From Escherichia phage ECD7: a stretch of 64,000 bases of DNA. The translations under genes and the position numbers were made by a program. Numbering within the stretch: position 1 is the first letter of the stretch; each line of letters opens with the position of its first letter. Of this stretch, positions 2,957 to 64,000 are shown piece after piece. The stretch lies in the sequence record NC_041936.1, one strand, 5' to 3'. The notes beneath the pieces were generated by a model. The model was not told the DNA's origin. It worked only from the letters and a program-made list of their open reading frames with translations, and searched no databases.

Positions 2957-3511
2957 ATGCTCTTTTCTTTCTTCCCTGCCATTGAATACAACGGCAAGAT
3001 GATTACTGACATTGTGCGCAATTACCGCGCATATTTCAACGCAATAATTTCTGATTATAACATACAAACATATTACATTCAAGGTAGTCCACGACCGGAA
3101 CAAGTTGCATATGAAGTATACGGAAACCAACAACTTTATTGGATCTTGCTGATGCTTAATGACGTATACGATCCGTTCCATGACTGGATCACCGATCAAG
3201 AGACAGCATATGAATCAGCCGAACAACGATATGCAAATGTAGGAGGAAATCAAGTATTATACCACGTTGATATTGACGGAAACAAGTATTGGAATCTTAC
3301 CGAATATCCGAAAGGATCAAGCAATTGGTATGATAAAGGGGATATTCATCACCGTCATTTGCAGTTTCAGGGTGCATTATCGGCAGTAGACACACTGGAA
3401 GATGCGATCCTCCGTAATGAGGAACGACGCAAGATCAAGATCATAGATCCTACACAAATTAAACAATTTATTAACGCATTCATTCGAGAAATGGAAAAGG
3501 CTGATGTGTAA
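2957..3511 (+). CDS. 53: baseplate wedge protein gp53
   Basis: 184 aa, synteny immediately upstream of gene 5. Confidence 0.75.
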   Translation: MLFSFFPAIEYNGKMITDIVRNYRAYFNAIISDYNIQTYYIQGSPRPEQVAYEVYGNQQLYWILLMLNDVYDPFHDWITDQETAYESAEQRYANVGGNQVLYHVDIDGNKYWNLTEYPKGSSNWYDKGDIHHRHLQFQGALSAVDTLEDAILRNEERRKIKIIDPTQIKQFINAFIREMEKADV

Positions 3512-6190: not shown

Positions 6191-8091
6191 CAAAGCAAAA
6201 GATTACACAAATTCCTGATATTTTTAATGCTGCTACATTCGATGAAATTAAAAGCGCATTAACAGACTGGATGAGAAACCAGGAAGAATTTAAAGATTTT
6301 GATTTTAATGGTGCTGGTATTAACGTATTGATGGACTTGCTCGCATATAATACCCTTTATATTCAGCAATTCGCCAACGCCGCGCTATATGAATCTTTTA
6401 TCAGAACGGCAATTAAGCGTAGTTCAGTTGTTCAAGCCGCGCAAGATTTAGGATATTTGCCAGCGAGCAAAACGAGTGCATCGACTACAATTATGTTGCA
6501 TGTATCACATCCGCGAAATCCGGCAAGTATTCGAATCCCACGAGGAACTAAATTTATTGCAAGTGTGGATCGCCAGACGTCTTATCCGTTTGTGACTACA
6601 GAAGACGTTGTGAGCGTTTTAGGTTCAAATGGTTTATATACGCCTATGCTTAAAGTCGCACAAGGTCGTATTGTTCGTACAGAAATGTTATTTGATCCGA
6701 AGAAACAAATTCTGATCCGTGATCCTGATATTGACCGCGCTCAGGTTAAGTTGTGGGTAGACGGTGCTGAATGGAAAGACTGGACGCGAGAAAGTATTGT
6801 TAATGCAACTGGCGCTAGTAATATTTTCTATCTGCGTGAAACCGTAGACGGACATACTGAAATTTTCTTTGGTGAGGGTGAATCAACTTTATCTGCTGCT
6901 GGCGGTGCACTGGAAGCAAATTATATTGGTGGACTTAAGCCGTCAACTGGCGCTAATATTGTTATTGAATATATCAGCACTAAGGGCGCGGAAGCAAACG
7001 GTTCAGTTAATTTCACATACGCGGATACCCTTGCATCTATCTCTATTGTTAAAATTATTGAGAATCCGACAAATGATCGTGATTATGTCGGTGCAGATGG
7101 TGGTGGTGATCCTGAATCAATCGAACGTATTCGTGAACTTGCTCCGGTAATGCGTGAATCTCAGCGTCGTTGTGTAACTGCGTCCGACTATGAGGCTTTT
7201 GTATCTAGCCGTTTTGGTAGTATTGTTCAGGCGGTACAATGTTTCACCGACCGAGAAAAACCGGGTTATGCTTTTGTTGCTGTTAAGCCTAAATCTGGCT
7301 TGCGCTTGACAACTGTTCAAAAAGAAGATATGCGGGATTATCTGGCAAAATATAATCTTGCCCCTATCACTCCGAGCATCATTGACCCTAACTATCTGTA
7401 TATTAAACAGAATATTAAAGTTTCCTATTCAATCAATGACTTGTCAGAATCAGAGCAGTGGTTGCGCGGTGCGGTTATTGATCAGATTGATGCATATTAT
7501 ACCGACGAAGTGGAAATTTTTAACCAGACCTTTAGTAAGTCTAAAATGCTTGCGCGTATTGACAAAGCTGATGTATCTGTGATAGGTTCTAGTGCAGAAA
7601 TAGAGATGGTGCGAGAGATCGACAACTTCTATAAAGCACCGATGGCTGGAATCAAGTTTTTAAACCAGTATAAGAGCGGAATCAAGTCTAGTTCATTCAA
7701 CTTCGAAAAGGACGACAAGCAATATCCAATCCATTATGTAAGTACAGAAATGAACAAAGAATCCGGTTTAGCTAAATTGCTGGTTGGACCTTTCCCTGTT
7801 GATTCTACAATCGCTTTACCGCACTATTCCGGCACTGATTTTGATAAAGAGGTTATCGACGGTGCGGACCTATACTTTGAGGTTGGAGAGGTTCAGCATT
7901 ATGACGACCTTATTTCATGGGATCTGGGTAAACTGAATATCAATAGCGATCGCTTTACTGGTTCATATATTGAGTTGACAGCTAAACCGATTGCTGATAA
8001 CATCTTTACTAAAGACGGTTCTTTGATCGTGTTTGAAAACGATCTCCGTCCTCAGTACACAACTATTAGTCTGGAGGCAATTGCTCAATGA
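6187..8091 (+). CDS. 6: baseplate wedge protein gp6
   Basis: 634 aa, synteny 5-6-7-8. Confidence 0.85.
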
Positions 8092-55377: not shown

Positions 55378-55707
55378 TTATAGTCTCCTGAATGGATCAT
55401 CACGTAAATCAATATCTTTTAAGAACTCATCCCATGAATGGCGGATATTGTTCTTAATTCTCCAGATAAGCGCAGGGATTGAACGCTCTCCCATCTGGAA
55501 GTAAGGATCATATGATCCGTATGCCCAATATGCTACTACAATTCCACAATCAGCGCAATAGTATTCTATTTCACTTGCTGGCGACCAAAGTCCATCAATA
55601 TGATCAGTGATCTTGCTTTCGATGTTATGGCTATGACAATCAGGGCAACGGATGCAATGACCTTGTTTATCGTAATTTGACGTTAGAGAATACTTAAACA
55701 ATCTCAT
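55378..55707 (-). CDS. small zinc-ribbon protein (109 aa)
   Basis: CIRCPDCH ... CADCG Cys pairs. Confidence 0.55.
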   Translation of the reverse strand: MRLFKYSLTSNYDKQGHCIRCPDCHSHNIESKITDHIDGLWSPASEIEYYCADCGIVVAYWAYGSYDPYFQMGERSIPALIWRIKNNIRHSWDEFLKDIDLRDDPFRRL

Positions 55708-56423
55708 TATAGATCCTTATTGGCTTCAAATACTGCCTTTGCGAATCCTCGCGGCGTAAGTGACCTGATAGTCTTTGTTCTGGTTCCTTTCCCGCCTAGC
55801 TTAGAATGCTGTTTGCTGTACCCTTTATTAATCTGCAACGGTTTCTTTTCTGGCATTATAAAGCCTTGTCCGGTCCATAAGCAAGTCTTTTTCGGGTACA
55901 TATCACGGGCGGCAATATACTCAGGAAACGTAGGATGCTTATCATCTTCCGGCAAATAACCGCCATATTCCCACGGATGGAACATGTAATCAGGCTTACG
56001 CCACATACTAGAGATAACGCTTACAGGATTCTCTATCATATAGGGAACTCCTAGCCATTCACCCAAATAAGCGGTTATTTTAGCTGCCCGTACATCATGA
56101 ACTTGAATCAATGGTCCTTGTTCTCGTTTCTTTCGTTCAAAGTGTGCAGCGCCACTAACAGCTAAATTGGTGCACGGTGGGAATGCAAATATAATATCCG
56201 GTTTCCCCCATTCAAGGTCCATTGCTCTTTCCAGCCAGTTCAAATCAATCCAGGTGTTTACATAGGTAATGTTTGGATGTTCAAATCTGGTATTATACTT
56301 TTTGTATGTACCGTGGTCGGCGTCATCCGCATTAAAGCAGACTACCTTATGACCTGCTTTAGCCCATTCTAGCCCCATTATCCCCGATCCGTCAAAGTTG
56401 CAGAATATTAATTTTTGTTTCAT
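55707..56423 (-). CDS. C5-cytosine methyltransferase-like protein (238 aa)
   Basis: FDGSGIMG (motif I-like), FAFPPCTNLAVSG (PC motif IV-like), MIENPVS (ENV motif VI-like); shorter than typical C5-MTases. Confidence 0.5.
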   Translation of the reverse strand: MKQKLIFCNFDGSGIMGLEWAKAGHKVVCFNADDADHGTYKKYNTRFEHPNITYVNTWIDLNWLERAMDLEWGKPDIIFAFPPCTNLAVSGAAHFERKKREQGPLIQVHDVRAAKITAYLGEWLGVPYMIENPVSVISSMWRKPDYMFHPWEYGGYLPEDDKHPTFPEYIAARDMYPKKTCLWTGQGFIMPEKKPLQINKGYSKQHSKLGGKGTRTKTIRSLTPRGFAKAVFEANKDL

Positions 56424-56665
56424 ATACGACCCTTTAACCCAGCACAGATTTTAGTCGGTTCTTTACCGTGCCACATTAAGTAAAGTCCGTTAGTGCGGCC
56501 TTGTTTTGTATATGATTCTTTTCTGATCTTCTTATAGTATCGTGCTTCCTCAGCCGATTGTTTAGAATGCCGATCATAAAGGAAGAGGAACAAAGGCCAA
56601 CCATTAGCGGCCTTAATGCAGTTATTAAGAAATTCCTTATTGCGTTTAATTAATTTTCTTTTCAC
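56420..56665 (-). CDS. hypothetical basic protein (81 aa)
   Basis: ORF coupled to flanking genes by 4-nt overlaps. Confidence 0.5.
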   Translation of the reverse strand: MKRKLIKRNKEFLNNCIKAANGWPLFLFLYDRHSKQSAEEARYYKKIRKESYTKQGRTNGLYLMWHGKEPTKICAGLKGRI

Positions 56666-56913
56666 GCTGCCCCCATTGGTTTGATAGTAACAGAATCTAA
56701 AAGACCTTTGTTAGCCAGTTCGCGGCAAGTTTTCAGATCCGTAACTTCCCAGCCAGCCGCAATCAGGTTATCAATGAGGCTGTTAGCAACTTCCTCGCTC
56801 ATGAAAGAGCACTGTTTGCCGATGGTGTAGCGCACACGCTGTAATTTCAGTTTACGGAAGCCTTTAACGTTCAGGTCTTTAGCGATTTTCTTTGCGGTTT
56901 CGATGTTAGCCAT
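56662..56913 (-). CDS. hypothetical protein (83 aa)
   Basis: ORF with GGAGAATC SD, downstream of promoter copy b. Confidence 0.55.
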   Translation of the reverse strand: MANIETAKKIAKDLNVKGFRKLKLQRVRYTIGKQCSFMSEEVANSLIDNLIAAGWEVTDLKTCRELANKGLLDSVTIKPMGAA

Positions 56914-56953
56914 TGTTTGATTCTCCTAAGTGGTATCTCGTCTTGATGGTTGT

Positions 56954-56982
56954 ATTGTAGGGGAGTTATCCTCCCCTGTCAA
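56954..56982 (-). promoter_or_regulatory. promoter-leader cassette copy b (TTGACA, palindromic spacer ggggaggataactcccc, TACAAT)
   Basis: -35 at 56977..56982, -10 at 56954..56959. Confidence 0.6.
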
Positions 56983-56996
56983 CACTTTTTATAAAA

Positions 56997-57164
56997 TTAT
57001 TTGTTAATTTCTGGTGCGTTGCTCGGATAGTAACCTTCTTTAACGCCCAGGTATTTCGCAACCATCCCTACAATCTTCTGTGCTACTACAATGTCAAATT
57101 TCAGATAATCTTCGCCGTGGGTTTCAATGATATATGCTTCACATGCTGCTTTAGTCTCGAACAT
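56997..57164 (-). CDS. hypothetical small protein (55 aa), paralogue of 60255..60422
   Basis: MFETKAACEAYIIETHGEDYLKFDIVVAQKIVGMVAKYLGVKEGYYPSNAPEINK; below ORF-track size cutoff. Confidence 0.6.
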   Translation of the reverse strand: MFETKAACEAYIIETHGEDYLKFDIVVAQKIVGMVAKYLGVKEGYYPSNAPEINK

Positions 57165-57197
57165 TTTGATTCTCCTATTTCGTTTCGGTATGGGTGT

Positions 57198-57226
57198 ATT
57201 ATAGGGGATCTCCCGATCCCCGTCAA
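57198..57226 (-). promoter_or_regulatory. promoter-leader cassette copy c (TTGACG, spacer ggggatcgggagatccc, TATAAT)
   Basis: -35 at 57221..57226, -10 at 57198..57203. Confidence 0.6.
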
Positions 57227-57240
57227 CAACTTTTTTAAAA

Positions 57241-57522
57241 TTATTCGTGATTAGTTTCGATGTTGTGCATTTTGCACCAGTTCAGCCAATCGCCCAGATC
57301 TTGATAGTTGATGCTTTTATCTGCTGCCATCGTTTTTGTCTTGATACCCATATGTGCGTTATGAGTAAGCATTTTTACAGTGAACTCAATTTTATCGCCT
57401 TTAGCTTTAACATCAACCAGTTTGGTCCACTGGCTACCAGCGCCGCGAATGTTCATGCCAACGATGTTTCCGATGTATGCTTCTTTGTTTTTCAGGATTT
57501 CGGTTGCTTTGATGAATTTCAT
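57241..57522 (-). CDS. hypothetical protein (93 aa)
   Basis: ORF downstream of cassette copy d. Confidence 0.55.
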   Translation of the reverse strand: MKFIKATEILKNKEAYIGNIVGMNIRGAGSQWTKLVDVKAKGDKIEFTVKMLTHNAHMGIKTKTMAADKSINYQDLGDWLNWCKMHNIETNHE

Positions 57523-57565
57523 TTTTGATTCTCCAGTTCGTTTCGGTATGGGTGTATTATGCTAT

Positions 57566-57594
57566 GTTCTTACTTTGGTGTCAACAACTTTTTA
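57566..57594 (-). promoter_or_regulatory. promoter-leader cassette copy d (TTGACA, 17 nt, CATAAT; non-palindromic spacer)
   Basis: -35 at 57589..57594, -10 at 57566..57571. Confidence 0.55.
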
Positions 57595-57861
57595 GATATT
57601 TTCAGAAATAAATTTTAAAACTTGACGTAAATGTTTCTCATCTTTGATAGTCGCCGGAAGTTCTTCTTTTACTTCCTGTGCAAGATAGATATTTCCGTTC
57701 CAAGTGAAAGATCCGTCTTCGTTTACGCGATAGCTGAACATCCACTCGCAATCATTTTCGATTTCATATACACACAGAAGGGTGTAATCGTTAAAGCTAT
57801 TGATTTCAAGGTCGAAGCCGTGACGTTTTGCAAAGTTGGTAGTGGTTTTAGTCAGTGCCAT
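57592..57861 (-). CDS. hypothetical protein (89 aa)
   Basis: ORF downstream of cassette copy e. Confidence 0.55.
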   Translation of the reverse strand: MALTKTTTNFAKRHGFDLEINSFNDYTLLCVYEIENDCEWMFSYRVNEDGSFTWNGNIYLAQEVKEELPATIKDEKHLRQVLKFISENI

Positions 57862-57901
57862 TGTTTGATTCTCCTAAGTGGTATCTAGTTTCGATGGGTG
57901 T

Positions 57902-57930
57902 ATTATGCTATACACAGGATCTGGTGTCAA
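57902..57930 (-). promoter_or_regulatory. promoter-leader cassette copy e (TTGACA, 17 nt, CATAAT)
   Basis: -35 at 57925..57930, -10 at 57902..57907. Confidence 0.55.
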
Positions 57931-57954
57931 TGCCTTTTTTAAAATTTTATGCAA

Positions 57955-57980
57955 TAAAAAAGCCGACGCTATGGTCGGCT
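57955..57980 (-). terminator. rho-independent terminator (agccgac-gctatg-gtcggct, T6 on minus strand)
   Basis: Follows gene 57988..58296. Confidence 0.6.
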
Positions 57981-57987
57981 AATAAAA

Positions 57988-58296
57988 TCATTTAGACAAA
58001 TAATCATTCTGTGCAATCCGGTCGGCGTATGCTGGTGTTATGTCAATCGCCAGCACTTTAACGCGTGCTTTCTTGCGACCTGGGTTTTCTCGTAACCAGT
58101 GCTCATGACCGTGAATATTTTTATACTGCGATGCTTCTTCGAAGGTACGGATCGGACCTGGGTAATCAGCGTAAAGGATCTCTAGATCTTCGGTGATGTA
58201 AAAATATACATCGTAATTGCTGTTCTCTAGCTTAAGCAGAGACTTTCGGAACATTGGGAGATTTTCGCGGGTAAATTCAAAGATATTATCTTTCAT
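57988..58296 (-). CDS. HxHW-family small protein, member 1 (102 aa)
   Basis: HGHEHWLRENPGRKKARVKVLAIDI. Confidence 0.6.
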   Translation of the reverse strand: MKDNIFEFTRENLPMFRKSLLKLENSNYDVYFYITEDLEILYADYPGPIRTFEEASQYKNIHGHEHWLRENPGRKKARVKVLAIDITPAYADRIAQNDYLSK

Positions 58297-58320
58297 AGTA
58301 TTATCCTCAATAGTTGGATG

Positions 58321-58340
58321 AAAAGGGGCGTTAACGCCCC
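58321..58340 (-). terminator. rho-independent terminator (ggggcg-ttaa-cgcccc, TTTT on minus strand)
   Basis: Follows gene 58347..58634. Confidence 0.6.
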
Positions 58341-58346
58341 CATATA

Positions 58347-58634
58347 TTAAAACAGTCCTTCCTGTACACCGTAGTAGAGTTCGTCGCTGATAATTTCATT
58401 AATGCGACGGTGTGCATATTCCTGATTTGCGAAGTTGTCAGCAAGTTCTACTTTAGTTTCGCCGTCATGAGTCCATTTAGTGATAACTTTACCATCTGCA
58501 AATTTGAAGTTGAACTCTTTAGCTACTGCATCGCGTACCAGACGTGCAAACTTATTGTTGCGGATTGCATTGTCGGTTTCGTGTGCAGCGTGAGCAAATT
58601 TGTTAACTTTCAGAGTGATAGTGATGTATGCCAT
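58347..58634 (-). CDS. hypothetical protein (95 aa), AKEFN-family with 61640..61951
   Basis: RLVRDAVAKEFNFKF vs LIREVRKALAKEFNTKI. Confidence 0.55.
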   Translation of the reverse strand: MAYITITLKVNKFAHAAHETDNAIRNNKFARLVRDAVAKEFNFKFADGKVITKWTHDGETKVELADNFANQEYAHRRINEIISDELYYGVQEGLF

Positions 58635-58680
58635 AATTTGATTCTCCTAGTTAGAAAGTGTATCTCGTTTCGATGGGGAT

Positions 58681-58709
58681 ATTATGCTATACCCCCGATC
58701 TGGTGTCAA
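58681..58709 (-). promoter_or_regulatory. promoter-leader cassette copy f (TTGACA, 17 nt, CATAAT)
   Basis: -35 at 58704..58709, -10 at 58681..58686. Confidence 0.55.
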
Positions 58710-58715
58710 CACTTT

Positions 58716-59009
58716 TTATAAAATAATTTTTTGATATTTTTCTATGATGTTCGTGTAAGTCACATCAACCGCTAGCACCGTTGCTTCGAATCCACCGTTT
58801 AGCCAATGGCTATGATCATGGTCGTGAAAGAAACCTAGTCCAGTACGAAGACCTTCTTTATATTCTGCGCGTACATTCAGTTTGTCGTCGATAAACAGAT
58901 AAAACCATGAATTTTTACTAGGATTGATGATACAACCTTTCAGATTAGGGAGAATATCACGACTAAGAATAAATTTATCACCTACTTTGAACATAATATT
59001 AGTCCTCAC
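58716..59009 (-). CDS. HxHW-family small protein, member 2 (97 aa)
   Basis: HDHDHSHWLNGGFEATVLAVDV. Confidence 0.6.
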   Translation of the reverse strand: MRTNIMFKVGDKFILSRDILPNLKGCIINPSKNSWFYLFIDDKLNVRAEYKEGLRTGLGFFHDHDHSHWLNGGFEATVLAVDVTYTNIIEKYQKIIL

Positions 59010-59319
59010 TTATAAGGTCAAACCAATTGTTTTTCGCATAATGCTTAATGCGTGCTTGATCTGCTTCCGCTGGTGATAGATTCCATGCAACCACTACAAC
59101 TTCTGACGCATCGTCATCAGTTTCTGATACCCAATGATTGTGATTCATACAGTTATTTGCTATCGAGTGAGCAAATGATTTCATCACTGGAGACGTATAA
59201 TCATAGTAACGGATTTTCAGATTTTCATCAACATACAAATAGATCGTATAAGGTTTATATTCAGTAACCAGTAACAGACAGTTACGCAATTCTGGGAAAA
59301 TCTTTTTAGTTAATTTCAT
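58999..59319 (-). CDS. HxHW-family small protein, member 3 (106 aa)
   Basis: MNHNHWVSETDDDASEVVVVAWNL. Confidence 0.6.
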   Translation of the reverse strand: MKLTKKIFPELRNCLLLVTEYKPYTIYLYVDENLKIRYYDYTSPVMKSFAHSIANNCMNHNHWVSETDDDASEVVVVAWNLSPAEADQARIKHYAKNNWFDLISED

Positions 59320-59521
59320 ATTCTAGTTCTCCGTAATACACAGTAATCCATTTTTCTTCATACTTTGTATCTTTCCAGCACACAACCCCGTTTACTGTGC
59401 AATCTTTGGAATTGACGAATGATTCATATTGTTCTGCATCTTCCATCATTTCATGAGCGGTCTTTTCATCGAATATATCGCAGATCGCTTTATATGCTCG
59501 ATAATCTTTAAATTTGCTCAT
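59306..59521 (-). CDS. hypothetical small protein (71 aa from MSKFKDYRAY), tandem paralogue 1
   Basis: N-terminus and MMEDA motif shared with 59524..59733. Confidence 0.55.
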   Translation of the reverse strand: MSKFKDYRAYKAICDIFDEKTAHEMMEDAEQYESFVNSKDCTVNGVVCWKDTKYEEKWITVYYGELEYEIN

Positions 59522-59523
59522 AA

Positions 59524-59733
59524 TTAACACCACTCAAGAGTTTTTGAAAACACATCTATCCATTGTTGAGTATATGCGGTTTCTTTCCATGATACAATAC
59601 CAGTCGAATAATGGTTTTTGTTTCCAGAAAAGGACGGGCATTTTGATGCATCTTCCATCATCTTTTCGGCGAACTCTGGTGCGTATACTCGCAAGATCTG
59701 TTGATATGCTTTGTAGTCTTTAAATTTGCTCAT
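59524..59733 (-). CDS. hypothetical small protein (69 aa), tandem paralogue 2
   Basis: MSKFKDYKAY...EKMMEDASK. Confidence 0.55.
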   Translation of the reverse strand: MSKFKDYKAYQQILRVYAPEFAEKMMEDASKCPSFSGNKNHYSTGIVSWKETAYTQQWIDVFSKTLEWC

Positions 59734-59998
59734 AATCGTTAACTACCTTATCAGCTTCTTTTATTGTTTTTACATCAACTGCGATAATACGTAAAGGTTC
59801 GTCGAAGGTCCACCAATGATCGTGAATATCAGCTTGTGATTTATCACCAAAGGAATCACGAATATCATTTTTACATTTATAGCTAATGTGACCGTTATAG
59901 TCAACATAAAGGTAATTATCGAAAATCGGCGTTTTTAAGATCATACCGAAAAATCTTTCTTTGTGTGTCTTATCCAGCGTTGCAGTAATTCGCATCAT
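59720..59998 (-). CDS. HxHW-family small protein, member 4 (92 aa)
   Basis: ADIHDHWWTFDEPLRIIAVDV. Confidence 0.6.
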   Translation of the reverse strand: MMRITATLDKTHKERFFGMILKTPIFDNYLYVDYNGHISYKCKNDIRDSFGDKSQADIHDHWWTFDEPLRIIAVDVKTIKEADKVVNDYEQI

Positions 59999-60010
59999 AA
60001 TATATTCCTC

Positions 60011-60190
60011 TTAGAAAGGGATGGTCATTTCTTGAGCTTGTACATTCTCGTTAGGATTAAACTTCATCCAACCGATATTGTCTACCAGCATATACACATT
60101 TTTATCATATCCTACGTGAGTAGTCAACACTAAATGTGCTTTACCTTCAACGATGATTTCCATGTACTTCTGAACTTCGATAGCTTTCAT
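60011..60190 (-). CDS. hypothetical small protein (59 aa)
   Basis: ORF with GGAGAATC SD; below ORF-track size cutoff. Confidence 0.5.
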   Translation of the reverse strand: MKAIEVQKYMEIIVEGKAHLVLTTHVGYDKNVYMLVDNIGWMKFNPNENVQAQEMTIPF

Positions 60191-60222
60191 TTTGATTCTC
60201 CGTTTGTTGTCTTGATGGGAGT

Positions 60223-60251
60223 ATCTTACTACTCCCTTTAATCATTGTCAA
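60223..60251 (-). promoter_or_regulatory. promoter-leader cassette copy g (TTGACA, spacer with palindrome gggagta-n6-tactccc, TAAGAT)
   Basis: -35 at 60246..60251, -10 at 60223..60228. Confidence 0.5.
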
Positions 60252-60254
60252 CGA

Positions 60255-60422
60255 TTATTTGTTAATTTCCGGTGCGTTGCTTGGATAGTAACCTTCTTTA
60301 ACACCCAGATATTTTGCAACCATTCCGGTGATCTTCTGTGCCACTACGATATCGAATTTCAGGTAGTCTTCACCGTGGGTTGCTACAATGTATGCTTCGC
60401 ATTCTGCTTTAGTCTGGAACAT
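60255..60422 (-). CDS. hypothetical small protein (55 aa), paralogue of 56997..57164
   Basis: MFQTKAECEAYIVATHGEDYLKFDIVVAQKITGMVAKYLGVKEGYYPSNAPEINK. Confidence 0.6.
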   Translation of the reverse strand: MFQTKAECEAYIVATHGEDYLKFDIVVAQKITGMVAKYLGVKEGYYPSNAPEINK

Positions 60423-60455
60423 TTTGATTCTCCTTTATCTCGTTGGTATGTGTGC

Positions 60456-60484
60456 ATTATAGGGGATCACCGATCCCCTGTCAA
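60456..60484 (-). promoter_or_regulatory. promoter-leader cassette copy h (consensus TTGACA, 17-nt perfect palindrome ggggatcggtgatcccc, TATAAT)
   Basis: -35 at 60479..60484, -10 at 60456..60461; two GATC sites in spacer. Confidence 0.65.
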
Positions 60485-60489
60485 CAACT

Positions 60490-60783
60490 TTATAATGCTT
60501 TATATGCGTATTTCATAAATTTGTCTGCCACTTCATTGGCATGTTCAGATTCTACGCCTGATTCGAGAACAATAGCTAGGTCGGTTTCGTCATTCCCGCC
60601 GTACCAATGATTTGATGTTCGATTTTTTTCAATTGGAAATTGGTCACTTTTATCTGTGCGACAAAATACATCTAAATGCTCGTCGATGTAAAAGATCCAA
60701 TCTTCATAAAGAATAACGGTATTAGCCAGATTTTTATTGCCTTCAACGAAAGGTTCGGCTACAAACAAATTAGTATGTTCCAT
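60490..60783 (-). CDS. HxHW-family small protein, member 5 (start likely ATG 60783)
   Basis: TSNHWYGGNDETDLAIVLESG; track ORF extends to 60840, overlapping upstream ORF. Confidence 0.5.
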   Translation of the reverse strand: MEHTNLFVAEPFVEGNKNLANTVILYEDWIFYIDEHLDVFCRTDKSDQFPIEKNRTSNHWYGGNDETDLAIVLESGVESEHANEVADKFMKYAYKAL

Positions 60784-60799
60784 AGTAATTTCCTCAAAA

Positions 60800-60991
60800 T
60801 TATACAGCTTCGTAAACTTCCCAATGTCCAACACCAGCACGCTTAACGAAAAGGTTTTCTTTGATGTTATTCATAAACGTCTGGATGGATTTAATGCGGT
60901 TTGAAGGTTTCCATTCTTCGTTGGCATTGCGTCGATACATCATAACATTACCAGTTCGCTTATATTCAGCAACCATTTTAAGACCACACAT
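60800..60991 (-). CDS. hypothetical small protein (63 aa), ends with GHW motif
   Basis: GAGGA SD before ATG 60991; C-terminal GVGHWEVYEAV may be a truncated family member. Confidence 0.4.
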   Translation of the reverse strand: MCGLKMVAEYKRTGNVMMYRRNANEEWKPSNRIKSIQTFMNNIKENLFVKRAGVGHWEVYEAV

Positions 60992-61048
60992 AATATTATC
61001 CTCAATTTGCGGGAGAGTATTACCCCTCCCAATGATTGTTATGTTATA

Positions 61049-61369
61049 TCACACAAAATGGCGTGTCAATGCTTCTTTTGCGGTTCCGCTAAGACTTTCG
61101 ATCTCGCCTGGCATAACATCAACCGCCAGAACTTCTACAACATCCTCGGACCCTAACCAGTGAGTATGGCCTTTGTAGAACTTGATAACCAGACTACCTT
61201 CCTCGTCCCATTTAACGCTATCGCTAGCCCACCACACATCACCGTCGATAAAGTTGATGTAAAGCACACTACGCAACATTGAATTAATTACTTTCAATAC
61301 TGCGCCTTTCATCTCTTCCACGGTATGGTCTTCCATTTTGAAGACCATACCTACCTGAACTTTTGCCAT
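61049..61369 (-). CDS. HxHW-family small protein, member 6 (106 aa)
   Basis: KGHTHWLGSEDVVEVLAVDV. Confidence 0.6.
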   Translation of the reverse strand: MAKVQVGMVFKMEDHTVEEMKGAVLKVINSMLRSVLYINFIDGDVWWASDSVKWDEEGSLVIKFYKGHTHWLGSEDVVEVLAVDVMPGEIESLSGTAKEALTRHFV

Positions 61370-61566: not shown

Positions 61567-61600
61567 GATTGATTCTCCTAGTTCGTTTCGGTATGTGTGT

Positions 61601-61630
61601 AGTATAGGGGATCTCCCGATCCCCTGTCAA
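61601..61630 (-). promoter_or_regulatory. promoter-leader cassette copy i (TTGACA, 18-nt palindromic spacer ggggatcgggagatcccc, TATACT)
   Basis: -35 at 61625..61630, -10 at 61601..61606. Confidence 0.6.
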
Positions 61631-61639
61631 CAACTTTTT

Positions 61640-61951
61640 TTAAAGTTTTTCCATGATAACGGTCATAATTACATCTTCTGCGCGAGCGGTCAGATTATCA
61701 GCGTCAGCATGTGGGCGGTTGGTTGTTACAGAGATAACACCGTTGCGCACTGGTTTGATATTGATATCAAGATGATCCGCGAAACGTTCGCCAGTTACAG
61801 AATGAATTTTGGTGTTAAATTCTTTTGCCAGTGCCTTGCGAACTTCACGAATCAGGGTAGCGTTTTTCAGTTGGTTCTCCGCGCTCATGGTCTTCTGGGT
61901 GTTCATGGTTCCGTCGAAGTCAATCATTGGCAGCGTTACGATGTATTTCAT
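61640..61951 (-). CDS. hypothetical protein (103 aa), AKEFN-family with 58347..58634
   Basis: Shared AKEFN motif. Confidence 0.55.
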   Translation of the reverse strand: MKYIVTLPMIDFDGTMNTQKTMSAENQLKNATLIREVRKALAKEFNTKIHSVTGERFADHLDINIKPVRNGVISVTTNRPHADADNLTARAEDVIMTVIMEKL

Positions 61952-62038: not shown

Positions 62039-62515
62039 TTATTTTTCTTGATGCTCGCGCTCGTACTTTTCGAAATAAAATTCTACTGGCTGGTCATGAA
62101 TTGACAGCAAGCCAAAGCGTTTAGCCGCTCGCAATCCCATATTGCGCTGAATGTACTTCTGGAAGTTCTCGCGTATACACTTACGCCAGTATTCTAAGCC
62201 CATACAGCTTTTATAAAGATTGCATTGTACACACGCCGGATTCATGTTATCAAGTATATCATGTTCCGGTTTATGCATTCCTACAACCTTATACTTCCAC
62301 GACCCATCATCATTACGGGCAATTCGTCCATTTTCATCATAGACTACCTTTGAGCGTCGCAATACTGGTTTGATATGGTCTGCGTGCCAGCGATCCCCTA
62401 GTTCCTCGCCACAATAGGCACAACGCCCACCGTATTTCATTTTCAGGATCTGGCGTTGCTCTTTCTTTGACAATTTTTTAGGTTTAGGGGCTTTCGCCCC
62501 TTCATTATCACACAT
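62039..62515 (-). CDS. HNH endonuclease
   Basis: CAYCGEEL...WHADHIKP...NMNPACVQCN; 158 aa; start overlaps ligase stop by 8 nt. Confidence 0.7.
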   Translation of the reverse strand: MCDNEGAKAPKPKKLSKKEQRQILKMKYGGRCAYCGEELGDRWHADHIKPVLRRSKVVYDENGRIARNDDGSWKYKVVGMHKPEHDILDNMNPACVQCNLYKSCMGLEYWRKCIRENFQKYIQRNMGLRAAKRFGLLSIHDQPVEFYFEKYEREHQEK

Positions 62516-64000
62516 CGAATACCTCTTTTACTGTATTTGCAGTGGTCTTGTCGTAGCGAATACGTTTGATGATTGGGAGAAATAAAGAGAACTCCGGTTC
62601 ATCTTCTTTACGTGATTTGCTGCGGATATACCCGTTGCATGTCATCTCAATGACTTTTCCAATCAGGTTATGACGGTCAGTCCATAACATTTCTCGGTCG
62701 AGTTCATTTCGACGATCGAACGGAATTACACGTTCAGTACCATCATCACCTTTTTCGGTTGTAGTGTCGGTTAATCCCGATCCGGTGTTAGTCATCATTC
62801 GTCCGCACGCACTACGGACAGTAAAACCGCCTACCTTATTGGGGTCTTTACTATGCGGATATACATCAACAATTTCCGCGTCGAAGTCAATCACTTCTTT
62901 AAATTTAACCTGATCTTTACTACGGCGATCTTCAAATACACCATGTAAATTTTTAAGGATAATACCTTCTAAGCCCATGTTTACATAGCGATGATATACT
63001 TCGCGAGCTTCATCGATATTGTTAACTACAGTGTTTTCGATTATCTGAACACGAGGATCGTTAAGTTCTTCAACAATCTGTTTTAGCTCTTCGAATCGAT
63101 CTTTATATTGCTTCGTTGCTTTCTCGTTTCCGTAATACACATCACGGTCGATAACATCCCAGACAGTGTAAACAATACATTGGGCTTCTTCTTTTGGAAT
63201 AGTTCCTTTCAGTGATTTGTTGAGGATACCATTTCCGGTCTGACGATCTGCAACAACGGATTCTTTCACCGCTTCCGCTACTGGCGTTAATGGCATTTCC
63301 TCTTCTTCAAATATCCATGACAGAGTACCATCATAAACGCTCTCAACGAAGTTCTGCGCTGGTGTTTGCGAAAGGGTAGGCATATATACCAATTCGCCAT
63401 CTAGAACAATTCCACGGCCTCGTAGACTCTCTAAAACCGCAAACAAATCATCAAGCCCTTGATAGGTATTACCTGAACGGGTATAGATTGCTAATGTTTC
63501 CCCGTCAATATCAGCCATACCACGAGCGCCATCGCTTTTAAGTTGTGCATACGCCGGATATTTGATATTGGCAATGGTCTTATCAGAACATGACGATGCA
63601 AGGTGGCACGGCTGCTGGGGGATCAGTTTCTTCCATACCTTGTTTGCAGTGGTAGCGGAACAACCGCATTCCAGGTCACGATTCAGGACCATCATTGCAA
63701 CTTTAGCATCATCTTCTGACAAGCAAGTCAGAGTATCGGTAACTAGCTGTAATGCTGCATTACCAGTTACTTGACGTGTGGCAAGTTTATTTTTAAAGAC
63801 TTGTAATGCACCGGATAAAGACAATACAGACGAATAGCGCGATGGTTTATCGTATTTCTTTACGCCAAACGTAACCTGTTTGCAATATGCCAGATAAAAG
63901 CATTCTTTCAGTGTTTCATTGCTTGCAGATTCTTTCAGGATCTTTTCTTTCAGCGATGTTTTGTCTGTTGCTGCAAGCTGATTAATGATATTAAGAATTG
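62508..64000 (-). CDS. 30: ATP-dependent DNA ligase gp30, 5'-truncated by window end
   Basis: KxDGxR adenylation motif in QLKSDGARG; resembles T4 ligase (TGNAA, RDLECG, ASS); minus-strand frame open from 63825 to 64000 with no stop. Confidence 0.85.
   Translation of the reverse strand, partial: ILNIINQLAATDKTSLKEKILKESASNETLKECFYLAYCKQVTFGVKKYDKPSRYSSVLSLSGALQVFKNKLATRQVTGNAALQLVTDTLTCLSEDDAKVAMMVLNRDLECGCSATTANKVWKKLIPQQPCHLASSCSDKTIANIKYPAYAQLKSDGARGMADIDGETLAIYTRSGNTYQGLDDLFAVLESLRGRGIVLDGELVYMPTLSQTPAQNFVESVYDGTLSWIFEEEEMPLTPVAEAVKESVVADRQTGNGILNKSLKGTIPKEEAQCIVYTVWDVIDRDVYYGNEKATKQYKDRFEELKQIVEELNDPRVQIIENTVVNNIDEAREVYHRYVNMGLEGIILKNLHGVFEDRRSKDQVKFKEVIDFDAEIVDVYPHSKDPNKVGGFTVRSACGRMMTNTGSGLTDTTTEKGDDGTERVIPFDRRNELDREMLWTDRHNLIGKVIEMTCNGYIRSKSRKEDEPEFSLFLPIIKRIRYDKTTANTVKEVFDV

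Follow-up and report, generated by a model that had tools for sequence, protein, structure and literature searches.

Two short open reading frames (ORFs) on the minus strand of Escherichia phage ECD7, each accompanied by a promoter cassette, raise the question of whether they are genuine genes, how they came to resemble one another, and whether promoter and gene were copied together. Our window, a 64,000-nt stretch of sequence record NC_041936.1, comes from a Krischvirus, i.e. an RB49/phi1-like T4-type coliphage, and 57 Krischvirus records match it at 93-98% identity by megablast. Judged by gene order relative to RB49 and phi1, the pair sits in hyperplastic region HPR3, which extends from ORF189 (DNA methyltransferase) to the gp30 ligase. 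In the ORF list, both frames consist of 55 codons plus a stop, copy A at 56997..57164 and copy B at 60255..60422. Synteny and profile matches identify them as the orthologues of RB49/phi1 ORF191 and ORF205, respectively: the genes flanking both copies are those found around RB49p191/p205 and phi1p191/p205, and both translations match PHROG 8009 (E 7e-38 for copy A and 1e-38 for copy B) over residues 1-55 of its 55-position profile. The RB49 (NP_891762.1 and NP_891776.1), phi1, and PHROG 8009 proteins are 98-100% identical in amino acid sequence to ours, have the same length and the same neighbors, show no difference of substance, and are all labeled as hypothetical proteins. The copy A protein occurs at 100% amino acid identity in 42 phage records and the copy B protein at 96-100% in 55. 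Far from being unannotated novelties, both ORFs are already deposited as ORF191 and ORF205, and such a pair is ordinary for this type of phage region. The basic observation of the original prediction, two 55-aa ORFs about 3.26 kb apart, each with a promoter cassette, was confirmed.

Stem-loop promoters around the two genes

The promoter cassettes of the pair are the published promoter-early stem-loops (PeSLs), which were described in RB49/phi1 by Arbiol et al. (2010, Genome Biol Evol 2:140; PMC2839356). Upstream of copy A, PeSL193/191 (57165..57233, minus strand) carries a -35 element at 57226-57221 and a -10 element at 57203-57198, which together form an 11/12 match to the sigma70 consensus (TTGACG-17-TATAAT, 57226-57198), followed by a leader and the Shine-Dalgarno (SD) sequence GGAG. 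Its counterpart upstream of copy B, PeSL206/205 (60423..60491, minus strand), likewise has a leader and an SD, with a -35 at 60484-60479, a -10 at 60461-60456, and a perfect 12/12 consensus match (TTGACA-17-TATAAT, 60484-60456). It is only one mismatch away from PeSL206/205 of RB49, a strong promoter whose fusion to lacZ gave ~13,000 Miller units (PMC2839356). Both upstream PeSLs have a GGGGATC-loop-GATCCCC hairpin between the -35 and -10 hexamers and AAAAAAG/TATAAAG tracts upstream of the -35, and a strong SD stands at the correct spacing before each of the 55-aa ORFs.

As predicted, the promoter scan located not only a cassette just upstream of each ORF, but also another -35 just downstream, beginning 3 nt past the stop codon of copy B (60251) and 14 nt past that of copy A (56982). 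Downstream of copy A, PeSL191/190 (56914..56996, minus strand) has a GGGGAGG/CCTCCCC stem-loop (-19.4 kcal/mol, z -4.9) inside the ORF190 promoter (56982-56954, 11/12), while downstream of copy B, PeSL205/204 (60191..60254, minus strand) combines the ORF204 promoter TTGACA-17-TAAGAT (10/12) with a GGGAGTA/TACTCCC stem-loop that overlaps the -10 (-15.7 kcal/mol, z -3.8). The PeSL191/190 stem-loop is a predicted attenuator of the copy A transcript, and the hairpin of another family member, PeSL211/210, was reported to terminate transcription like rrnB T1 (PMC2839356). The leader sequence GGAGAATCAA is common to nine PeSLs between 56.9 and 62.0 kb, and the leader sequence GGAGAATCAAAATG, on the side of the SD and the ORFan start codon, is found in nine units over the same interval. 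The cassettes of the pair therefore show the features by which PeSLs are recognized: a near-consensus sigma70 promoter, an AT-rich tract, a G-run/C-run stem-loop, an SD with an ORFan start codon, a location in a hyperplastic region, and recombination between PeSLs that yields insertions, deletions, or replacements among related genomes.

Origin and age of the probable duplication

Alignment of the two copies defined a repeat unit of 238 nt (56996-57233 and 60254-60491) with 84% DNA identity and a spacing of 3258 nt. The repeat spans the promoter/leader and the ORF, with one end lying a single base past the stop codon and the other just upstream of the -35. Since the alignment takes in both the upstream part and the ORF, the similarity goes beyond the cassette, and the proposal of a duplicated module is upheld. 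The two proteins share the C-terminal APEINK and are identical at 50 of 55 residues (91%; BLASTP E 2e-38), differing at five positions (E3Q, A7E, I13V, E14A, and V32T) rather than the four counted originally. The description of the copies as near-identical is apt for the protein, but not for the coding DNA, which is 85% identical with 25/168 nt differing. By the Nei-Gojobori method, dS is ~1.0, dN ~0.047, and dN/dS ~0.05.

We consider it likely that an old cassette duplication gave rise to ORF191 and ORF205 as a pair of paralogous early genes, both protein-coding and each a small, self-contained PeSL-based transcription unit. Each unit opens with a near-consensus sigma70 promoter whose -35 and -10 elements enclose a G-run/C-run hairpin, continues through a ~35-nt leader bearing a strong SD into the 55-codon ORF, and is followed directly by the hairpin of the next PeSL, which would attenuate read-through. 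Long ago, such a ~238-nt "PeSL + ORFan" cassette was presumably copied to a second PeSL site within the same hyperplastic region by homologous recombination between PeSLs, either through re-insertion of an excised mini-circle or through unequal crossing-over between replicating genomes. Continuing recombination between PeSLs or repeats would then give rise to natural variants without the 3.26-kb interval or without ORF191 alone. The two portions of the repeat may not share their entire history, as PeSL193/191 is nearer to PeSL210/209 (92%) than to PeSL206/205 (85%), and thus the promoter part may derive from swapping among PeSLs instead of having been passed on together with the gene.

The age of the duplication was assessed from the distribution of the two types. 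Across the genomes examined, identity within a type is 97-99% for A copies and 97-100% for B copies, whereas A and B are 84-87% identical in each of the four two-copy genomes compared, so the copies group by type and not by genome. Because the A/B gap is similar in every two-copy genome compared and the types are separately conserved, the duplication is older than the diversification of the Krischvirus genomes sequenced to date. A dS of ~1.0 between copies residing in genomes that are otherwise 93-99% identical could also be accounted for if two diverged cassette alleles had been captured independently, at different times and from different phages, via PeSL-mediated insertion. The mini-circle model explicitly permits the insertion of a foreign cassette (PMC2839356), and the family is also present in unrelated siphoviruses, which indicates that it moves horizontally. 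We nevertheless regard such separate captures as unlikely, given that the A and B proteins resemble each other (91% amino acid identity) far more than either resembles any homologue from outside Krischvirus (≤72%), that no third donor lineage was found among 1.84 billion representative proteins or in IMG/VR, and that the PeSL and leader upstream of A and B are co-similar at 78-85%, the same level as the gene.

It is less probable still that the pair is the remnant of an old ~3.3-kb tandem segmental duplication, in which divergence, loss, and replacement affected the other genes and left the 55-aa genes as just its best-preserved members. Several other relationships across the region would fit such an event: ORF198 and ORF210 both match phrog_7474 and have ATGs 3317 nt apart, compared to 3258 nt for the 55-aa pair, six H-x-H-W paralogues of ~100 aa are scattered through the two halves, and ORF201 and ORF202 form a tandem paralogous pair. 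However, DNA similarity between the copies breaks off exactly at the stop codon on one side and a little before the -35 on the other, with the flanks beyond the repeat unit falling to 27-36% identity, a direct comparison of ORF198 with ORF210 detects no similarity, and the gene order of the two halves is not colinear. The remaining paralogues are only 15-44% identical, and would thus need a much greater age or a much weaker constraint than the 55-aa genes.

With an old cassette duplication as the favored explanation, the original interpretation survives insofar as it proposed a duplicated module that combines a promoter-leader cassette with a genuine small gene. Its further reading, in which a gene derived from or adapted to the host was duplicated recently, is highly improbable and was rejected. 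The 91% identity of the proteins and a handful of E. coli-preferred codons recognizable on inspection are set against a dS of this size, the fixation and separate conservation of both types across the genus, and a GC3 (0.39 and 0.43 for the two copies) that lies within the 0.30-0.51 range of neighboring phage genes in a window of 0.41 G+C, which leaves no host-like codon usage. A search of related phage and host genomes had also been proposed; both types were found across Krischvirus, while blastn detected no DNA match to the pair in 5,426 complete E. coli genomes and no encoded relative was confirmed by tblastn at any locus in 185,579 GTDB species genomes.

Coding status and protein family

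The conserved 168 nt are hardly likely to be a non-coding part of the regulatory cassette or an RNA gene, even though the ORFs are short and functionally unannotated and PeSLs are themselves conserved non-coding repeats, because 19/25 nucleotide differences fall at third codon positions (binomial p 1.6e-5), distant homologues maintain the reading frame at 44-72% amino acid identity (the one examined, from swi2, without a G/C-stem PeSL), no Rfam match was obtained, and a strong SD is appropriately placed. There are 17 synonymous and 5 non-synonymous codon changes between A and B, and strong purifying selection on the protein has preserved both copies.

Outside of Krischvirus, homologues with 68-72% amino acid identity are encoded by the unrelated 45-48-kb siphoviruses swi2, Bas81, SeSz-2, D10, and Pu29, and others with 44% identity by Sasha-type phages. 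The proteins of Swiduovirus swi2/Bas81, SeSz-2, D10, and Pu29 (51-53 aa) and Sashavirus gp04 (62 aa) all belong to the same family and, like the window copies, are single small genes with their own promoter, but they are present in single copy, adjoin terminase genes, and lack the C-terminal APEINK. In swi2, the gene has a standard sigma70 promoter with no G/C-stem PeSL. Sixteen residues are invariant across the family (F2, T4, K5, C8, E9, Y11, I12, G17, Y20, A28, K30, L39, G44, Y45, S48, and N49). A first AF2 model was poor (pLDDT 68), and a model built with a 7-sequence alignment reached a pLDDT of 79 with two helices. The protein is accordingly modeled as a helix-turn-helix-shaped, two-helix hairpin, with predicted helices at residues 5-16 and 18-39 and a conserved, extended EGYYPSN tail.

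A word-indexed search of a 5.8-billion-protein collection returned just 4 clusters, all close, and an exhaustive HMMER search of 1.84 billion representatives returned 9 matches, of which only three are credible, all of them tiny phage proteins; long multi-stretch matches from this search (P0008-P0012) were dismissed as compositional. There was no match in Pfam, NCBIfam, PADLOC, the PDB sequence profile, or Rfam, and no significant sequence or fold match to known anti-defense, defense, or other curated families. A weak match to PHROG 485 (E 0.01) leads to a family that itself has no known function.

Natural recombinants and possible roles

We found 107 matching places by tblastn in the 57 Krischvirus records covered by this count (the ligase gene matches 58): 50 records have two copies, of the same A and B types, 7 have one, and 0 have none. 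The single-copy genomes include several apparent recombinants. In Cognac and FL04, the order is ORF206, a single 55-aa gene, and ORF190, such that one repeat unit and the 3.26-kb interval are absent; in the window, the interval between the repeat units (57234..60253, minus strand) holds the ten genes ORF193, 194, and 197-204. In Cognac, a B-type promoter, hairpin, and leader precede a coding sequence of the A type, the crossover falling between the SD/ATG and codon 3. The FL04 crossover lies instead in the -35/hairpin region, and this different position marks an independent event. In JK32, Brandy, and UPWr_E1, ORF191 is precisely absent and a chimeric PeSL193/190 occupies its place, although these genomes could instead preserve an ancestral state from before ORF191 was inserted, and need not be deletion products. 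Larger deletions occur in MIZ4 and in an IMG/VR locus (L004). Based on these genome comparisons, the repeat units and neighboring PeSLs still serve as recombination substrates.

These rearrangements closely parallel the PeSL system of Arbiol et al. 2010, which concerns the same genus, the same HPR3, and the same elements. A mini-circle carrying ORF191-194, and hence ORF191 itself, was detected in that study, and crossovers inside PeSLs, between the -35 and the ATG, were mapped for ORF192 and ORF210 (PMC2839356), similar to the presence or absence of ORF191 and the Cognac/FL04 crossovers inside PeSLs seen here. The 238-nt repeat of the window differs in being longer than a PeSL, because it includes the gene. 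The paralogy of ORF191 and ORF205 is not mentioned in PMC2839356 or its 2014 sequel (PMC4122927), neither of which describes a duplication via the PeSL mechanism or a 3.26-kb deletion between the pair. Likewise, the genes of the pair are not discussed in the 2006 five-genome paper or the 2022 Cognac/Brandy paper, and a literature search for Krischvirus transcriptomics yielded nothing relevant. As a discovery the locus carries little weight, since the genes were deposited as hypothetical proteins and both the cassettes and the shuffling mechanism were published in 2010. Its value is rather that ORF191/ORF205 provide a clean example of a duplicated PeSL + ORFan cassette, an outcome expected from the mini-circle model, while Cognac, FL04, JK32, Brandy, and UPWr_E1 are natural recombinants with crossovers inside PeSLs that lend comparative support to this model.

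We infer that the product most probably serves as an accessory protein, made very early and in abundance, that binds to a host component in the course of takeover or counter-defense; having two diverged copies would then offer dosage or a back-up. A more ambitious proposal, which we hold only tentatively and consider rather unlikely, is that it is an important immediate-early effector (a host-takeover/counter-defense binder) whose two types have perhaps diverged in their targets, with the 238-nt repeat perhaps acting as a recombination handle. At least one copy is present in all 57 Krischvirus records with this region despite recurrent PeSL-mediated deletions, and unrelated enterobacterial siphoviruses share the family. 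Four fixed substitutions at the surface (E3Q, A7E, E14A, and V32T) set the A and B types apart, and the types might have diverged in target specificity. The gene-containing repeat, for its part, may be an extra-long recombination handle through which the ten-gene block of 3.26 kb leaves and re-enters as a mini-circle. Purifying selection, the retention of at least one copy everywhere, and the spread of the family to unrelated coliphages and Salmonella phages together make this tiny protein a reasonable candidate for functional study.

Two paralogous 55-aa genes in a hyperplastic region

The original prediction described a near-identical pair of 55-aa ORFs, and both are indeed present, at 56997..57164 (copy A) and 60255..60422 (copy B) on the minus strand, as is every gene of the surrounding stretch. 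The encoded proteins both end in APEINK and are identical at 50 of 55 residues, although five positions differ (E3Q, A7E, I13V, E14A, and V32T) rather than the claimed four; they are by far the closest paralogue pair within the 64-kb window. A Megablast search with 56500-61000 matched 57 phage records (93-98% identity), and every one belongs to the genus Krischvirus, which comprises the T4-type coliphages RB49, phi1, JSE, and their relatives. Copy A is the orthologue of RB49p191/phi1 ORF191 and copy B that of RB49p205/phi1 ORF205, each deposited as a hypothetical protein, and both give full-length matches to PHROG 8009 (function unknown). The stretch, hyperplastic region HPR3 in Arbiol et al. 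2010 (PMC2839356), is bordered by a DNA methyltransferase gene (55707-56423) on one side and by HNH endonuclease and gp30 ligase genes (62039-63824) on the other. Its topology in the window is that of phi1, with ORF192, ORF195, and ORF196 absent.

Other paralogues are found in the same region. Six ORFs of 92-106 aa (ORF197, 199, 200, 203, 206, and 208; 57988-58296, 58716-58994, 58999-59319, 59720-59998, 60490-60783, and 61049-61369, all minus) can be aligned end to end with 15-32% identity, and all contain an invariant H..HW motif and, after it, a strand resembling 'VLAVDV'; they are apparently a family of divergent paralogues that takes up a large part of the hyperplastic region. ORF201 and ORF202 (59306-59521 and 59524-59733, minus) are tandem paralogues with 44% aa identity, an MSKFKDY start in both, and a 97-nt DNA repeat of 70% identity common to their 5' ends.

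The repeat unit and its promoters

A repeat finder returned a 238-nt direct repeat (56996-57233 vs 60254-60491) with 84% identity and 3258-nt spacing. With the two copies anchored at the ATG, 78% of leader positions, 79% of those between -10 and -35, and 85% of ORF positions are identical; the figure is 27% further than ~76 nt upstream of the ATG and 36% directly past the stop codon. Since identity drops at both borders and the ORF is 85% identical, the repeat unit consists of promoter, leader, and ORF; the duplicated module is thus a cassette plus its gene, as predicted, rather than a similarity limited to the cassette. The promoters proposed directly upstream of each copy were also recovered by a consensus scan, as TTGACA-17-TATAAT for copy B (60484-60456, minus; 12/12 matches) and TTGACG-17-TATAAT for copy A (57226-57198, minus; 11/12), and the next promoters begin 3 and 14 nt past the two stop codons. 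Both upstream cassettes are promoter-early stem-loops (PeSLs), which occur upstream of ORFans within hyperplastic regions and combine a sigma70 consensus promoter, preceded by an AT-rich tract, with a G-run/C-run hairpin and a Shine-Dalgarno/ATG (PMC2839356). The leader GGAGAATCAA is common to nine PeSL units located from 56.9 to 62.0 kb. The two genes have the anatomy of monocistronic early units, with hairpins downstream of copy A (-19.4 kcal/mol, z -4.9) and copy B (-15.7 kcal/mol, z -3.8). Fused to lacZ, PeSL206/205, the unit between ORF206 and ORF205 that drives copy B, reached about 13,000 Miller units, and a PeSL hairpin was as good a terminator as rrnB T1 (PMC2839356); one base of PeSL206/205 differs between the window and RB49.

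The hairpin loop of PeSL206/205 (60462-60478) is inverted between genomes: where the window, RB49, and Cognac have GGGGATC-GGT-GATCCCC, phi1 and JK32 have ...GATC-ACC-GATCCCC, which suggests template switching or recombination inside the palindrome. PeSL193/191 (57165-57233), which drives copy A, is 92% identical to PeSL210/209 (61567-61640) and 85% identical to the PeSL of its paralogue, suggesting that PeSLs exchange sequence independently of the genes they drive. The sole canonical rho-independent terminator of 56.6-60.7 kb (AGCCGAC...GTCGGCT then TTTTTAT; 57980-57961, minus) directly follows ORF197, genes elsewhere in this interval being separated by PeSL hairpins only. Rfam gave no match in the region.

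Coding status and spread of the 55-aa family

Both ORFs are real coding genes. Copies A and B differ at 25 of 168 nucleotides, with 19 of the 25 at third codon positions (binomial p 1.6e-5), and their codon changes comprise 17 synonymous and 5 non-synonymous; the Nei-Gojobori estimates (dS ~1.01, dN ~0.047, dN/dS ~0.05) reveal purifying selection on the protein. Frame-keeping homologues with 68-72% aa identity are encoded by Swiduovirus swi2 and Bas81 and by SeSz-2, D10, and Pu29, all unrelated siphoviruses of 45-48 kb, while those of Sasha-type phages have 44% aa identity; 16 residues are invariant throughout the family. In the siphoviruses, the homologue heads a short operon of tiny genes adjoining the terminase genes (3001-3358 in swi2, L005; 2492-3125 in Sasha, L012). 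The swi2 promoter is an ordinary one, without the G/C hairpin of the window's PeSLs.

The family is tiny and phage-only. A 5.8-billion-protein search yielded four clusters, HMMER, run exhaustively against 1.84 billion representatives, yielded only three credible matches, and a pattern plus tblastn scan of 185,579 species, one genome each, found no relative. In two database proteins (P0004, 77 aa; P0006, 73 aa), a B-type N-terminus (~52 and ~22 residues, respectively) is joined to unrelated sequence; they probably reflect chimerism or frameshifts in short assemblies, not real variants. The suggestion of host-like codon usage was not borne out: GC3 (0.39 for copy A, 0.43 for copy B) is within the range of 20 neighbouring phage genes (0.30 to 0.51; window G+C 0.41), and sensitive blastn with the whole repeat unit found no match in 5,426 complete E. 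coli genomes.

An AF2 model from a seven-sequence alignment (pLDDT 79, pTM 0.56) predicts two helices (residues 5-16 and 18-39) followed by an extended tail (40-55) with a conserved EGYYPSN; searches by sequence and by fold gave no significant match. Judging only from the class of promoter, the pattern of selection, the persistence of one copy or more, and the occurrence of the family in several enterobacterial phages, our best guess is a small protein that is made abundantly very early and binds a host component, for which two copies may give dosage or back-up.

Age, origin, and recombination of the copies

Copies were compared from the window, G2494, RB49, phi1, JK32, Cognac, and one IMG/VR contig. 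A-type sequences (orthologues of copy A) are mutually 97-99% identical and B-type sequences 97-100%, whereas A vs B identity is 84-87% in each two-copy genome of this set, and the copies show no trace of having been homogenised. The duplication is consequently old, not recent as originally proposed, and these identities indicate a split that predates the divergence of sequenced Krischvirus members. By tblastn, 57 Krischvirus records contain 107 places, with both copies in 50 and one copy in 7; none of the 57 records with the region lacks both (the ligase gene matches 58, one untraced).

The pair probably originated through the copying of a PeSL + ORFan cassette to a second PeSL site, with mini-circle re-insertion or unequal crossing-over as the presumed route; PeSL promoter and terminator activity and the existence of mini-circles are known from the literature (PMC2839356). 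Copies A and B could instead be diverged alleles that were acquired separately, which we consider unlikely. Less likely still is an old segmental duplication of larger extent, as similarity ends exactly at the unit borders and BLASTP found no pairwise similarity between ORF198 (58347-58634, minus) and ORF210 (61640-61951, minus), even though both match phrog_7474 (~E 1e-43) and the distance between their start codons, 3317 nt, is near the 3258-nt spacing of the 55-aa pair.

Copy-number variants have arisen via recombination within PeSLs. Cognac and FL04 lack the 3.26-kb interval along with one repeat unit, so that their gene order is ORF206, a single 55-aa gene, ORF190. The -35, hairpin, and leader of Cognac are B-type and its coding sequence is A-type from codon 3, placing the crossover within the shared AGGAGAATCAAAATGTTC, while the hairpin and leader of FL04 are already A-type, placing it at the -35/hairpin. 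Judged by these junctions, the deletions are two independent events, and the 238-nt repeats still recombine. The essentials of this system are already in databases and the PeSL literature; the ORF191/ORF205 paralogy and the Cognac/FL04 deletions, which have no mention in the PeSL papers (PMC2839356, PMC4122927) or the 2006 five-genome and 2022 Cognac/Brandy papers, are minor additions to it. In JK32, Brandy, and UPWr_E1, ORF193 is followed directly by ORF190 with a single chimeric PeSL (PeSL193/191 hairpin, PeSL191/190 leader), an arrangement like the published ORF192 polymorphism. Larger deletions are present in MIZ4 and in a metagenomic Krischvirus contig from IMG/VR (IMGVR_UViG_3300045988_033703). 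The latter deletion takes out ORF198-191 without a PeSL junction, fusing the ORF199 coding sequence to that of ORF190 (~6338-6776).
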